In this document: in pieces, positions 7,383 through 11,826 of the stretch
Layout of the letters: each line of letters starts with the position of its first letter
Position numbering within the stretch: position 1 is the first letter of the stretch
From: Bdellovibrionales bacterium
Lineage (GTDB): Bacteria > Bdellovibrionota > Bdellovibrionia > Bdellovibrionales > UBA1609
Reading direction: 5' to 3'
Length of the DNA: 32,000 nt
NCBI GenBank assembly: GCA_963692945.1
Contig: OY843585.1
Location: 330,001 to 362,000, forward strand
Position numbers and translations under genes: made by a program
Notes under the pieces: model-generated
What the model saw: the letters and a program-made list of their open reading frames with translations, nothing else
Database searches by the model: none
Told to the model about the DNA's origin: nothing

Positions 7383-7511
7383 ATTTCCCTATAAAACTTA
7401 TCGGAAATATAAGATTTATAAAAAAGTCGTTCTTTTATTTTAAGAGAAAAATCTTTTTCAGCCTAAATTTTTCATTTTTTTAGCTAAAAAGTGTCTCATT
7501 TTAATACATTT

Positions 7512-7816
7512 TAACAAAACTCTCGTTCAAAAAAGTATTTTCTACTCTTATTTTAACGAGCTTTTCATCACAAGAGGGGACACTCTTTTACAAAACTCTA
7601 GTGTTACCTTTCTTATTTTCTGACCTTTCATCGTAAAAGGGGACACTCTTCAAGCTCAAAAAGTAAAAAAGGTATTCCTAGAGAAAAACTTCTGTTTTTC
7701 GCACTTTTGTTTTTCGCATCACCGGTTTTCTGAGTTTTCATCGTAAGAGGGACACTCTTCAAATCTCGTTAAACTAAGAGTTACTTAATAGGCTTATATT
7801 TGAACTAGAGTTTTGT
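7512..7816. repeat. Cluster R1 of modular hairpin (MITE/REP-like) elements, three cores
   Basis: Termini are TAACAAAACTCTCGTTC (7512-) and TGAACTAGAGTTTTG (-7815), with an internal CAAAACTCTAG at 7591. Core copies TTTCATC(G/A)(T/C)AA.AGGG(G)ACACTCTT at 7563-7589, 7626-7653 and 7736-7762. Also holds the GGTATTCCTAGAGAAAAACTTCTGTTTTTCGCA module seen in R4 and R5. Confidence 0.85.
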
Positions 7817-7922
7817 AAAAACGACAGTATCCGAATTTACAAATAAAAAATGAAAAAAAGCCCTGCTTCTTGATAGTTTATTCATACTCTCTTTTTGCTT
7901 TATATAGATATTGAGAAAAACA

Positions 7923-8966
7923 ATGTCTAAAAAAGCTAAGCAAGTTTTAAATCTTAAAAATCAAACCTTAGAATTTAAAAAAGGAATTCATAAGAAAAAC
8001 ACAGCTTTTAGTCATGATAAGTTTTTTAAACTCTTCTATTCTAATCCTGACTTAGCTACAGAACTCTTTGAACTCATCTTTTCAAAAAAAGAAATGAAAG
8101 CTTATGATTGGAAAAAACTAAAAATAGAAAAAGATAGTTTTGAAGATAAAAGAGCTGATCTTATTTTCTCTGTTCCTTTTAAAAAAATTCCTAAAATGAA
8201 ACTCACCCTCTTTATTCTTCTAGAACATAAGTCCTATTATGATAAAAACCTCTTCCATCAACTTTTAGATTATCAAGTGTTAATTCACCGACATAATAAA
8301 GACCATCTTGGTTATTTACAACCTATAATTCCTGTTTTGTTTTATCATGGGAAACAAACTATGAAGTGGAAATCTTCTTTTTTAGAAGAGAATTTTAGAG
8401 ATTCTCTTTTTAAAATTCCTTTAGAAACAAGAAAAAACATGTTAAACTACAAGTTGAAAGTAATAGATGTGAATGCTCCAAGAGTCCAAAGAGCTGGTAA
8501 GGATAAAAGGTTTAAGGGGCGAGGGGCGTTGAGTTTATTGAGGGAAATATGGAGTTTAAAGAACCCAACAGATTCTAAGTTGCGTGAGATTGTTTTAGAT
8601 TTTAAGGAGTTGTTTAAAAGTATAGAAGGTCAACGAAAAGCGGATGTTTTGTTAGGAATTACTGAGTATCTGAAACAGAACACGGGGTTGAGTGCAAAGA
8701 ATTGGAAGAAGATTGAGGATTTGATGGTAAAAGAGGGATTTTTAAAAAGAGGAGGAACTATGATAAATATGAGAAAGATTATAAGAGAACGAGCTCTGGA
8801 AGAAGGACTGGAAGAAGGACAACGAAAAGGACGACAAGAGGGGCGACAAGAGTTTAAAAAAGTTATTTTGAATATGTTGAAGAAAAAACTTGATATCTCT
8901 TTGATTTCGGAAGTGACAGGTTTGTCTAAAGCAGAGATTAAAAAACTAAAAAACAGTCATAAGTGA
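7923..8966 (+). CDS. Rpn/YhgA-like recombination-promoting nuclease (PD-(D/E)XK, 'transposase_31' family), full-length form
   Basis: N-terminal HDKFFKLFYSNPDLATELFELIF, then RADLIFSV...LTLFILLEHKSYYDKNLFHQLLDY (a D...E-x-K nuclease motif in the YhgA-like arrangement), and a C-terminal VILNMLKKKLDISLISEVTGLSKAEIKKL helix-turn-helix-like tail. The ORF track starts at TTG 7911; the first ATG is at 7923. Confidence 0.8.
   Translation: MSKKAKQVLNLKNQTLEFKKGIHKKNTAFSHDKFFKLFYSNPDLATELFELIFSKKEMKAYDWKKLKIEKDSFEDKRADLIFSVPFKKIPKMKLTLFILLEHKSYYDKNLFHQLLDYQVLIHRHNKDHLGYLQPIIPVLFYHGKQTMKWKSSFLEENFRDSLFKIPLETRKNMLNYKLKVIDVNAPRVQRAGKDKRFKGRGALSLLREIWSLKNPTDSKLREIVLDFKELFKSIEGQRKADVLLGITEYLKQNTGLSAKNWKKIEDLMVKEGFLKRGGTMINMRKIIRERALEEGLEEGQRKGRQEGRQEFKKVILNMLKKKLDISLISEVTGLSKAEIKKLKNSHK
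8749..8762 (+). promoter_or_regulatory. Internal ribosome-binding site plus in-frame ATG inside the rpn-like gene
   Basis: AGAGGAGGAACT-ATG, with GGAGG at 8751-8755 and the ATG at 8760 in frame (residue 284). A second in-frame ATG lies at 8769. The same SD+ATG block heads the two downstream cassettes. Confidence 0.6.
8760..8966 (+). CDS. Candidate internally initiated C-terminal small protein (RpnS-like, 68 aa) nested in the rpn-like gene
   Basis: In-frame ATG with a strong SD. The product is MINMRKIIRERA + 19-aa linker (LEEGLEEGQRKGRQEGRQE) + conserved tail. The same architecture occurs as separate genes at 9013 and 9327. Confidence 0.5.
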   Translation: MINMRKIIRERALEEGLEEGQRKGRQEGRQEFKKVILNMLKKKLDISLISEVTGLSKAEIKKLKNSHK

Positions 8967-9012
8967 TTTTTTAAATGTCTTTAAAGAGGGGCTTTTAAAA
9001 AGAGGAGGAACT

Positions 9013-9261
9013 ATGATAAATATGAGAGAGATTGTAAGAGAACGAGCTCGGGAAGAAGGACGACAGGAAGAACGAAAAAAATGGTTTAAAAACGGACAAA
9101 CTAGGGGACGACAAGAAGGGTTTAAAAAAGGACGACGAGAGGGACGACGAGAAAAACGACAAGAGTTTAAAGAAGTTATTTTGAATATGTTGAAGAAAAA
9201 ACTTGATATCTCTTTGATTTCGGAAGTGACAGGTTTGTCTAAAGCAGAGATTAAAAAATAG
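9013..9261 (+). CDS. Free-standing RpnS-like C-terminal cassette, copy 2 (82 aa)
   Basis: Same AAAAGAGGAGGAACTATGATAAATATGAGA head as at 8745-8774. The 39-aa linker has 4-residue periodicity (REEG RQEE RKKW FKNG QTRG RQEG FKKG RREG RREK RQE). The 84-nt tail (9175-9258) is identical to 8862-8945. Confidence 0.6.
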   Translation: MINMREIVRERAREEGRQEERKKWFKNGQTRGRQEGFKKGRREGRREKRQEFKEVILNMLKKKLDISLISEVTGLSKAEIKK

Positions 9262-9326
9262 TCATAAGTGATTTTTTAAATGTCTTCAAAGAGGGATTTT
9301 TAAAAAGAGGAGGAACTATAATAAAT

Positions 9327-9662
9327 ATGAAAAAGATTATAAAAGAACAAGCTATGGATAAAGAGTTTCAAGAAACTCTTAAAAAAGGGTTTCAAACTTG
9401 GATAAAAGAGCGTCAAAAAGGGTTTGAAGAAGCACAACGAGAATGGTTTCCAGAAGAGTCTGAAAAAGGGTTTAAAAAAGGGTTTAAAAAAGGACGACAA
9501 GAAGGACAACAAAAAGGACGACAAGAAGGACAACAAAAGTTTCAAAAAGTTATTTTGAATATGTTGAAGAAAAAACTTGATATCTCTTTGATTTCGGAAG
9601 TGACAGGTTTGTCTAAAGCAGAGATTAAAAAACTAAAAAATAGTCATAGAACAAAACTCTAA
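9327..9662 (+). CDS. Free-standing RpnS-like C-terminal cassette, copy 3 (111 aa)
   Basis: Same head, but the first ATG is mutated to ATA, so the start is the second ATG. 62-aa linker and an identical 84-nt tail (9549-9632). The last codons ACA AAA CTC TAA lie in the terminus of repeat cluster R2. Confidence 0.6.
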   Translation: MKKIIKEQAMDKEFQETLKKGFQTWIKERQKGFEEAQREWFPEESEKGFKKGFKKGRQEGQQKGRQEGQQKFQKVILNMLKKKLDISLISEVTGLSKAEIKKLKNSHRTKL

Positions 9663-9742
9663 TTTTACTTTTTGAGCTTGAAGAGTGTCCCCTTTTACGA
9701 TGAAAAGCTCGTTAAAGTAAAAGTTCACACACGAGAGTTTTG
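9651..9742. repeat. Cluster R2: single hairpin element
   Basis: ACAAAACTCTAA...TTTTACTTTTTGAGC-[TTGAAGAGTGTCCCCTTTTACGATGAAA, 9678-9705]-GCTCGTTAAAGTAAAAGTTCACACACGAGAGTTTTG. The arms are self-complementary. Confidence 0.85.
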
Positions 9743-9783
9743 AAAAAGTTGACTTTTTCAAGAAAATTTTGCATTTTAACTTA

Positions 9784-10485
9784 ATGCCTATTGTTCTTAT
9801 TTTTCTTTGTTTTTTTTGTATGTTTGGCTGTGTGAATGCTGAAAAAACACAAGCTAGATTTACAGCAAAAAAATATTATGAGATATCTCTCCAATATAAA
9901 AAAGAAGGAAAGTTATCTAAAGCTCTTAAAACTTTAGAAGAACTTAAAAAACATTTTTCCTATGATTCTTACAGCTTGTCAGCCTCTTTACTTATAGCAG
10001 ATATTCATTTTGAAAGAAGAGACTATGTTCTTGCAGCTGGTCTCTACACACAATTTCAAAAAATTTATCCAAAAACGAAAAGTCAATATGTTCACTATCA
10101 GCTAGGACGTTCTTATTTTTATCAACTTCCTAAGTCTGCTGATAAAGATTTATCTGTAGGAGAGTTGGCTTTACAAAACTTTCAACCTCTTTTACGAAAA
10201 TCCTCTCCTTACAAAAAAGAAGCTAAAAAATATGTGAAAAAAATTCAGACTCTAAAATCTAAAAAAGATTTTCTAGCGGCTCTTTTTTATTCAAAGAAAA
10301 AATGGAATCCATCGGCTTGGAAGCGATTGCAAATTCTTATAAAAGAGTATCCTGAAAGTCCTTTTGTCCCAGAGGCTCTTTTGCTTAGCTATAAACTGGC
10401 TAAAAAAATGAATAAAAATCCTAGCTCTTTTAAAAACCGTTTACTCAAAGAATTTCCAAAATCTGAACAAGCAAAATCCTTATGA
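9784..10485 (+). CDS. bamD: Outer membrane protein assembly factor BamD-like TPR lipoprotein
   Basis: Signal peptide with lipobox (CMFGC). The TPR-like pattern and the ...YPKTKSQYVHYQLGRSYFYQ..., ...SSPYKKEAKKYVKKI..., ...EYPESPFVPEALLL... segments match the BamD/ComL layout. The ORF track starts at TTG 9769; the first ATG is at 9784. Confidence 0.65.
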   Translation: MPIVLIFLCFFCMFGCVNAEKTQARFTAKKYYEISLQYKKEGKLSKALKTLEELKKHFSYDSYSLSASLLIADIHFERRDYVLAAGLYTQFQKIYPKTKSQYVHYQLGRSYFYQLPKSADKDLSVGELALQNFQPLLRKSSPYKKEAKKYVKKIQTLKSKKDFLAALFYSKKKWNPSAWKRLQILIKEYPESPFVPEALLLSYKLAKKMNKNPSSFKNRLLKEFPKSEQAKSL

Positions 10486-10991: not shown

Positions 10992-11088
10992 CAAAACTCT
11001 AGTTCTTCCTTTTTATTTTTAATATTTCTTTATAAAACGAGTATAGTTTTTGTATATAGTTTATGGTAAACTAAAAGAAGGAGAAATA

Positions 11089-11826
11089 ATGAGTAATAAA
11101 TCTACTGTTTTGGAGGCTAAAGCTTATTTTGCAGAAATTCGGAAACTCTTCAAAGAACGAAAAGAGTGCGATAAAGAAATGGCAGAGGAGCGAAGAAAAG
11201 AACGAGAAGAGCGAAAAAAAGAACGAAAAGAGTACGATAAAAAAATGGCAGAAGAGCGAAGAAAAGAACTAGAAAAAGAGCGAGAAGAGTACGATGAAAA
11301 AGCAGCAGAAGATATTAAAGAACTCCGAGCTAGCCAAAAAGCAACTGCCAAACAAATAAAAGAGACGGATCTAAAATTCAATGATTACTGGGATAATTGG
11401 GATAATTGGGATAACTGGGATAACTTGATGGAATCTTTATATAAACGAGATTTAGTGAAACTTCTAAAACAAAAAGGTATCAAAGTTGATCTGACTGCAA
11501 CAAATATAGTGAAAAAACATGGGGAACCACAATTTGAATTTGATATTTTAGCTTCCAATGGGGAGGAGCTCGTTGTTGTAGAAGTGACAACAACTTTGTA
11601 TATTAAAGAGTTGAATTATTTCATTAAGAAATTAAATAGAGTTACGGATTTTATGCCAGAATTTAAAGGTAAGAAAGTTTATGGAGCCGTTGCGTATTTA
11701 AAAGCCAATAAATCTTCTGACAAAAGAGCTGAGAAAGAGGGTTTGTTTGTGATAAGAGCGACAGAAAGCAGTTCCAATATTGTTAATAAGCAGGATTTTA
11801 AACCCAAATCTTTTTCAAAACTCTAG
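11089..11826 (+). CDS. DUF3782-like protein: N-terminal coiled coil + C-terminal PD-(D/E)XK-type domain, copy 1
   Basis: AAGGAG lies 6 nt before the ATG at 11089 (the ORF track's TTG 11050 extension is unlikely). FEFDILASNGEELVVVEVTTTL is a D...E-V-(K/T) motif, read as EVK in copy 2. The layout (coiled coil, then the short nuclease-like domain, ...KVYGAVAYL...GLFVI) matches DUF3782-type proteins as I remember them. The last codons TCA AAA CTC TAG lie in the element terminus. Confidence 0.55.
   Translation: MSNKSTVLEAKAYFAEIRKLFKERKECDKEMAEERRKEREERKKERKEYDKKMAEERRKELEKEREEYDEKAAEDIKELRASQKATAKQIKETDLKFNDYWDNWDNWDNWDNLMESLYKRDLVKLLKQKGIKVDLTATNIVKKHGEPQFEFDILASNGEELVVVEVTTTLYIKELNYFIKKLNRVTDFMPEFKGKKVYGAVAYLKANKSSDKRAEKEGLFVIRATESSSNIVNKQDFKPKSFSKL

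Follow-up and report, generated by a model that had tools for sequence, protein, structure and literature searches.

An Rpn-family gene with a predicted intragenic antitoxin and two free-standing tail genes in a Bdellovibrionales genome

The closest described counterparts of the gene reported here are rpnA to rpnE and rpnP2 of E. coli and a gene of C. difficile, in which an internal start gives a short second product, RpnS, from within the reading frame of the full-length protein, RpnL (Zhong et al. 2023, PNAS; PMC10400941). The internal starts of E. coli and C. difficile were validated experimentally, RpnL was toxic and cleaved DNA, RpnS blocked RpnL, and RpnP2 gave protection from phage (PMC10400941). 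RpnAS is a three-helix dimer, and the four-residue repeats in the dimerisation helix begin 8-20 residues after the Met, their number setting the specificity between the long and the short protein; stand-alone RpnSs copies downstream (ypaA) and tandem rpn arrays are also known, and rpn is found in 34 bacterial phyla, with repeats in Leptospira, Bacteroides, Bacillus, and Clostridioides (PMC10400941). Here we analysed a stretch of 32,000 nucleotides from a Bdellovibrionales bacterium (assembly GCA_963692945.1, contig OY843585.1, positions 330,001 to 362,000), the whole of which is called the window. The open reading frame (ORF) at 7923-8966 of this window is probably an intact Rpn-family gene-within-a-gene that encodes an RpnL nuclease together with RpnS and would form an antiphage module of the toxin-antitoxin type. 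A preliminary description of the locus, made from its sequence, had named the toxic RpnL, the RpnS antitoxin, the four-amino-acid repeats, and phage defence as features of the E. coli system, and in this it agrees with the published work. It had also called the locus a distant member in an unrelated genome, which is to be expected given the number of phyla in which rpn is already known.

The full-length gene and its probable internal start

The full-length gene, rpnL (7923-8966, plus strand), starts with the ATG at 7923, which has a TTG upstream at 7911, ends with the stop codon at 8964-8966, and encodes an Rpn-family PD-(D/E)XK nuclease of 347 amino acids that is the predicted toxin. Profile searches confirmed that the protein belongs to the Rpn/YhgA family: PF04754 (YhgA-like, Transposase_31) matched residues 31-197 at E 2.8e-23 with 83 bits (cut-off 21), while the match to TIGR01784 extended over residues 31-342, covering model positions 2-273 of 273, and scored 53.2 bits where the cut-off is 52.1. 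Searching the database yielded 492 homologues, of which the named ones, in Bdellovibrionales/Oligoflexia assemblies, are 'Rpn family recombination-promoting nuclease/putative transposase'; the family is also known as COG5464. By the extent of the Pfam match the nuclease domain lies at 8013-8513 (plus strand), and in an alignment of 44 homologues that were 46-96% identical, D79 (8157-8159), E101 (8223-8225), H102, and K103 (8229-8231) were invariant. The motif RADLIF ... LLEHKS corresponds to the D...E-x-K signature, and from this superfamily motif D79, E101, and K103 were assigned as candidate catalytic residues. In the AlphaFold2 model the nuclease domain has a confident alpha/beta core with a predicted local distance difference test score (pLDDT) of about 90, and the pLDDT of the whole model is 81. 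The full protein had no match when its sequence was searched against the PDB, and the resemblances seen with Foldseek were weak ones of the XisH/nickase/McrC type and of the resolvase helix-turn-helix (HTH) type. In the precomputed annotations PF27070.1 is placed on many of the homologues (P0001, P0004, P0007, and others), including the paralogue of the window gene, and this accession may stand for a newly added Pfam family that describes the Rpn tail.

Direct reading of the sequence bore out the internal start signal as the preliminary description had given it. The internal Shine-Dalgarno (SD) sequence, AGAGGAGGA, is at 8748-8756 (plus strand) with GGAGG at 8751-8755 and is encoded by the codons for R-G-G, and the order at the site is AAAAAGAGGAGGAACT, the ATG at 8760, ATAAAT, and the ATG at 8769. 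Both ATGs share the frame of the ORF at 7923-8966 and lie 4 nt and 13 nt from GGAGG, respectively, and from the ATG at 8760 to the stop there are 68 codons. The predicted intragenic antitoxin gene, rpnS, occupies 8760-8966 (plus strand), and the 68 residues of its product would read MINMRKIIRERA-LEEG-LEEG-QRKG-RQEG-RQEF-KKVILNMLKKKLDISLISEVTGLSKAEIKKLKNSHK; the ATG at 8769 would give 65 amino acids. That second ATG was found only in the source genome's own copies and was rejected as the true start because its Met is not conserved in homologues, and the ATG at 8727 (MVKEG..., with GAGG upstream) was rejected for the same reason, the conserved start being the ATG at 8760. RNA folding left the SD and the ATG at 8760 unpaired, there was no significant RNA structure around the internal start (z 0.7), and a scan of 7600-9800 found no terminator. 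The motif by itself was dropped as evidence because in the source genome (1.56 Mb, 31.7% GC), taking a crude set of 1168 long ORFs, GGAGG lies 4-10 nt upstream of 41 of the 6159 internal in-frame ATGs (0.67%). The bare combination of GGAGG and ATG is common enough by chance, and its non-randomness at this locus rests on position and conservation.

In the 44 aligned homologues G278 and M280, the latter encoded by the codon at 8760, were invariant, and among the 120 closest homologues nearly every one had K/Q/R-G-G-x-M at the site. DNA was obtained for 29 distinct relatives, and each of them had GGR-GGN-NNN-ATG there. The first Gly codon, the third base of which is the A of GGAGG, was GGA in 25 relatives and GGG in 4, and GGT and GGC did not occur, whereas the adjacent Gly codon, the third base of which is outside the core, was GGA in 12, GGG in 9, GGT in 5, and GGC in 3. 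The remaining Gly codons of the same genes were used at about 25% each, and the binomial p for the bias at the first Gly is about 9e-12, a value that overstates independence because these relatives are kin, with the adjacent Gly codon acting as an internal control. In homologues from other genera of the phylum that are 27-36% identical the residues vary (KGERIM, EEERIM, GEDRIM, QEDWIM), and an AAGGAG, GAGGAG, or GGAGG core is retained there, 6-9 nt before an in-frame ATG that is 63-80 codons from the stop. A set of 82 distinct Rpn ORFs, most of them distant, was drawn from genomes and metagenomes; 64 of these had an SD-preceded ATG 45-110 codons before the stop, and an SD was present at 75 of the 198 ATGs (38%) in the boundary zone versus 20 of 258 (8%) in the N-terminal part (Fisher p 3.7e-15). 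The two tail-only genes downstream of rpnL, which are described below, have the same SD head as their sole available start signal. Because the Met is invariant, the SD is under synonymous constraint, SDs are enriched at the boundary, and the free-standing copies have the same head, the internal start appears to be selected as a start, and the comparative evidence strongly supports the internal-start reading that had been put forward earlier. The data strongly suggest that the internal ribosome-binding site, and not merely the protein, is under selection. At the main rpnL starts of 26 relatives there was AGGA only in 12 and no SD in 9, and upstream of 7923 there is no 4-mer of AGGAGG (GATATTGAGAAAAACAATG). 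A weak main start set against GGAGG at the internal one would favour an excess of the short product.

In the AlphaFold2 model of the full-length protein residues 271-279 form a coil, followed by a 41-residue helix at 280-320 that begins exactly at Met280 and then by two short helices; when the 68-amino-acid protein was modelled alone it had the same fold of three helices, with a pLDDT of 83. The tail on its own also matched TIGR01784 over positions 216-273, the last 58 of the model, at E 6e-9. The hypervariable four-residue repeats LEEG LEEG QRKG RQEG RQEF are encoded at 8796-8855 (plus strand) and begin at residue 13 of RpnS, the translation across them being ...RERA LEEG LEEG QRKG RQEG RQEF KKVILNML. 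The four-residue period in 12-nt repeats that had been pointed out before was recovered by Tandem Repeats Finder, with a period of 12 and a perfect repeat of CTGGAAGAAGGA present 2.1 times at 8796-8820, the later units being imperfect. In 112 of 114 distinct homologous tails the distance from the Met to NML falls on a ladder of four-residue steps, either 21, 25, ... 53 or 26, 30, ... 54. The repeats are followed by the conserved tail VILNMLKKKLDISLISEVTGLSKAEIKK (8862-8945, plus strand), which is HTH-like and identical in all three modules of the window; in profile comparisons it matched the gamma-delta resolvase HTH at E 0.012 and, weakly, RpnA (7TH0) at E 0.07.

Free-standing tail genes in a duplicated cassette

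The whole rpn cassette, which consists of the promoter region, rpnL/rpnS, and two free-standing tail genes (7804-9662, plus strand), is present twice in the genome. The second cassette, at C1:~1142389-1144124 on the minus strand, has the same three-gene layout, and blastn of window 7401-9900 against C1:1141800-1144700 (reverse complement) showed 97.6% identity over 1866 nt, corresponding to window 7804-9661. More than half of the differences between the cassettes (28 of 51 positions) fall in 8804-8856, including a 12-nt indel, and the RpnL of the second cassette has one repeat unit fewer than that of the window. Free-standing RpnS-like gene 1 (9013-9261, plus strand, 82 amino acids) has GGAGG at 9004-9008, and free-standing RpnS-like gene 2 (9327-9662, plus strand, 111 amino acids) has GGAGG at 9309-9313. 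The preliminary description made no mention of the same SD/ATG head before these two downstream genes. The heads and tails of both are 90-100% identical to 8744-8966, and the distance from the Met to NML is 57 residues in gene 1, about 80 in gene 2, and 37 in rpnS; compared with the linker of the adjacent RpnL, theirs are longer by 20 and 43 residues. In gene 1 an 8-nt slippage deletion near 9251 removes one unit of a two-fold TAAAAAAC and costs 6 codons, and the counterpart in the second cassette is intact and has 88 amino acids. In gene 2 the conserved first ATG is now ATA (9318) in both cassettes, and the start is the next ATG, 13 nt from the SD.

Among the relatives, a stand-alone copy was present downstream of rpn in 10 of about 25 loci. 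The linker length of the adjacent gene was matched by 5 of these 10 copies, and the rest differed from it by 4 or 8 residues; mosaics were also seen in relatives, some with the linker identical and the tail different, others the other way round. Each free-standing tail gene in the window is preceded by a 7-codon mini-ORF, ATG TCT TTA AAG AGG GGC TTT TAA at 8973-8996 and ATG TCT TCA AAG AGG GAT TTT TAA at 9278-9301. These mini-ORFs are what remains, in a shifted frame, of the stretch that codes for MVKEGFL upstream of the internal start, and they end just ahead of the SD.

A hairpin-repeat core of about 27 nt (..catcgtaagagggacactcttcaa..) brackets the rpn cassette in inverted copies, at 7736-7762 on the left with its inverted partner at 9678-9705 (ttttcatcgtaagagggacactcttcaaa / cttgaagagtgtccccttttacgatgaaaag), and is also present at 7563-7589 and 7626-7653; short blastn matches showed that the second cassette is flanked by similar repeats. 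The source genome has only two full-length rpn copies. In other members of the same genus (g1) and in a sister genus (g220), covered by genomes G416-G474 and with genome sizes of 1.4-2.5 Mb, the Rpn family is hugely expanded, up to at least 19 scored copies each, and it is present in only 4 of the 35 genera of the family and 6 of the 401 sampled genomes of the phylum. In one relative at least five rpn genes stand in tandem about 1.4 kb apart (G339:C12:75226-80367; L012, L026, L006, L021), and these genes are near-identical save for the number of GRQE repeats in the tail, which ranges from 1 to 5 units. In a Bdellovibrionales metagenome-assembled genome (JACOND010000004.1; L004, 2907-4090) an RpnS-like module (..KQGGLMDVIENIKEKGIWEG..) lies upstream of the N-terminal part of rpn and is fused to it in frame; the rpn gene itself is split by a frameshift, and the locus resembles a rearranged or decaying rpn array. 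Further downstream in the window a 258-amino-acid ORF (11050-11826, plus strand) has an N-terminal charged repeat (EERRKE...), DNW four times, and a C-terminal PD-(D/E)XK-like segment (..EFDILASNGEELVVVEVTTTLYIKE..); the matches of this ORF to Csx1 in PADLOC were sub-threshold only.

Proposed mechanism and alternative explanations

In the mechanism proposed here, one mRNA would give two products, RpnL weakly from 7923 and RpnS strongly from 8760. RpnS would be a long helix with four-residue repeats followed by a small HTH-like pair. By homology with the E. coli proteins RpnA-E and RpnP2, its repeat helix would pair with RpnL at the C-terminal domain, which has the same sequence as RpnS, and would hold the nuclease inactive. 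The number of repeats would set the specificity of the pairing, and a trigger, presumably derived from a phage, would release RpnL. The translation of RpnS, the toxicity of RpnL, its neutralisation, and a role in phage defence are predicted here from that same homology. The two downstream genes are stand-alone copies of the RpnSs type, the tail and its SD head having been duplicated in tandem.

Several results weigh against this explanation. The score against TIGR01784 passes the cut-off barely, Foldseek searches of the PDB with the full-length and the 68-amino-acid models gave nothing at E<0.05 and did not retrieve 7TH0, the tail connects only weakly to the solved RpnAS, through the match to 7TH0_A given above, and a Pfam profile search found no match to DUF4351 (PF14261) in the proteins of the window. 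Both spacings between the SD and the candidate ATGs are outside the usual SD optimum, a consensus scan for an internal promoter near 8600-8750 gave nothing convincing, the relatives in the codon test are kin, as said, and there is no recognisable defence island around the gene, PADLOC giving sub-threshold, unrelated matches only.

A different explanation for the internal start is that the SD-like sequence is a by-product of a structurally required Gly-Gly-x-Met linker and that the small protein is not made separately. GGAGG is exactly two Gly codons, the same motif is present before 41 other internal ATGs of the genome, many of them at Gly-Gly, and the spacing of 4 nt to the ATG at 8760 is short, all of which is as this explanation would have it. 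However, the third base of the first Gly codon is A or G in 29 of 29 relatives, with GGA in 25, whereas all four codons occur at the next Gly, and in the distant homologues the purine-rich core is retained although the residues there are entirely different. Protein structure offers little reason for an invariant Met as the first residue of a solvent-exposed helix, the head is kept in the free-standing copies, where no longer ORF surrounds it, and the internal starts of E. coli and C. difficile have been proven by experiment (PMC10400941); we therefore consider the by-product explanation very unlikely. The name 'putative transposase' raises another, namely that Rpn is an enzyme of a mobile element and that the tail protein is an inhibitor of transposition like Inh of Tn5 and not a defence antitoxin. 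This would fit a 1.86-kb cassette that occurs twice in the genome with 97.6% identity and has a hairpin repeat, in inverted orientation, on either side, and a family hugely expanded in related small genomes, up to at least 19 copies each. Against it, Zhong et al. found the ends to be variable, with neither terminal inverted repeats nor target-site duplications, and found no autonomous transposases of the PD-(D/E)XK type (PMC10400941), and the arrays in the relatives look like tandem duplications. We consider a mobile-element role highly improbable.

The downstream genes may be judged separately, as they could be decaying, functionless remnants of a duplication even if the intragenic rpnS is real. 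Gene 1 is truncated by the 8-nt slippage deletion, gene 2 has exchanged the conserved ATG for ATA and begins 13 nt away from its SD, and their linkers are 20 and 43 residues longer; in E. coli, RpnL is neutralised only when the repeat number of the RpnS matches. Yet both ORFs are open in both cassettes with heads and tails kept near-identical, stand-alone copies follow rpn in 10 of about 25 loci of relatives, and RpnESs (YpaA) of E. coli is expressed (PMC10400941). We judge decay to be less likely than not, though to be taken seriously. A tentative idea, to which we would give about one chance in several, is that the free-standing tail genes are a library of recombination donors that rewrites the repeat helix of RpnL and RpnS together and resets their pairing specificity in one step. 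Identical SD/ATG heads and identical 84-nt tails bracket linkers of unequal length, and exchange with the intragenic copy would proceed by gene conversion or unequal exchange. The intragenic linker of the second cassette carries sequence typical of downstream copy 2 (GGGTTTCAAAAAGG ... GGACAACAAAAGTTTCAAAAAGTT), and a cassette-specific single-nucleotide polymorphism, ATGTTAAAG, is present in the intragenic copy of the second cassette and in its own downstream copy 2 and is not found in the cassette of the window. The linker of the copy 2 type, the common polymorphism, and the linker/tail mosaics of the relatives are hints that would suit a donor library, and Zhong et al. have raised the idea that RpnL itself might promote such recombination events (PMC10400941).

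Taking the gene to be an RpnL/RpnS module, it adds a Bdellovibrio-like, AT-rich lineage with small genomes to the taxa that would keep the Rpn design of an antitoxin inside a toxin. The contrast between GGA at the first Gly codon and GGN at the next is unusually clean sequence evidence for selection on an internal ribosome-binding site. Annotation pipelines give one product for such a gene, by which the 68-amino-acid protein and the two small downstream genes would be missed or left unnamed. Its expansion in copy number, its four-residue ladder, and its common linker/tail mosaics could make this clade a natural data set for the evolution of repeat number and of stand-alone copies.

Comparison with known systems

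The locus leaves the known Rpn mechanism unchanged, and we regard it as a new example of the same mechanism because all of its sequence-level features, including the stand-alone copies, have already been published for E. coli Rpn (PMC10400941). Like RpnA-E and RpnP2 of E. coli, the protein has a YhgA-like PD-(D/E)XK N-terminal domain, and an in-frame internal ribosome-binding site and start are placed where a small helical C-terminal domain begins. As in E. coli, the four-residue repeats, made of one hydrophobic residue with charged residues or Gly, vary between paralogues and relatives, their start at residue 13 falling within the published range, and the distribution is patchy with a variable copy number. 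Unlike in E. coli, the identity to the E. coli equivalog models is about 25-30% at best, NF007361 matching the N-terminal part only at E 7e-9; the window gene has K in place of the residue that follows E-H in the catalytic motif (LLEHK); and the tail falls short of DUF4351, reaches RpnAS (7TH0) at E 0.07 only, and is accompanied by no internal promoter that a consensus scan could find.

The arrangement downstream is like that of rpnE-ypaA (rpnESs) and rpnC-rpnCSs, where a tail-only gene that is a local duplicate of the upstream rpn follows it directly and has its own start signal. It differs from these in that two successive copies are present here, with linkers of 57 and about 80 compared to 37, one of them truncated and the other without its primary ATG, and in that the three-gene unit of the window is itself duplicated in the genome. 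In Tn5 transposase/Inh and Cas10d/Cas11d, which are cited in PMC10400941, one ORF also gives two nested products, the shorter of which binds the longer or regulates it, but their folds and activities are unrelated to those of Rpn and the analogy is a formal one only. The donor library considered above, if it exists, would be comparable in logic to the silent pilS cassettes that feed pilE.

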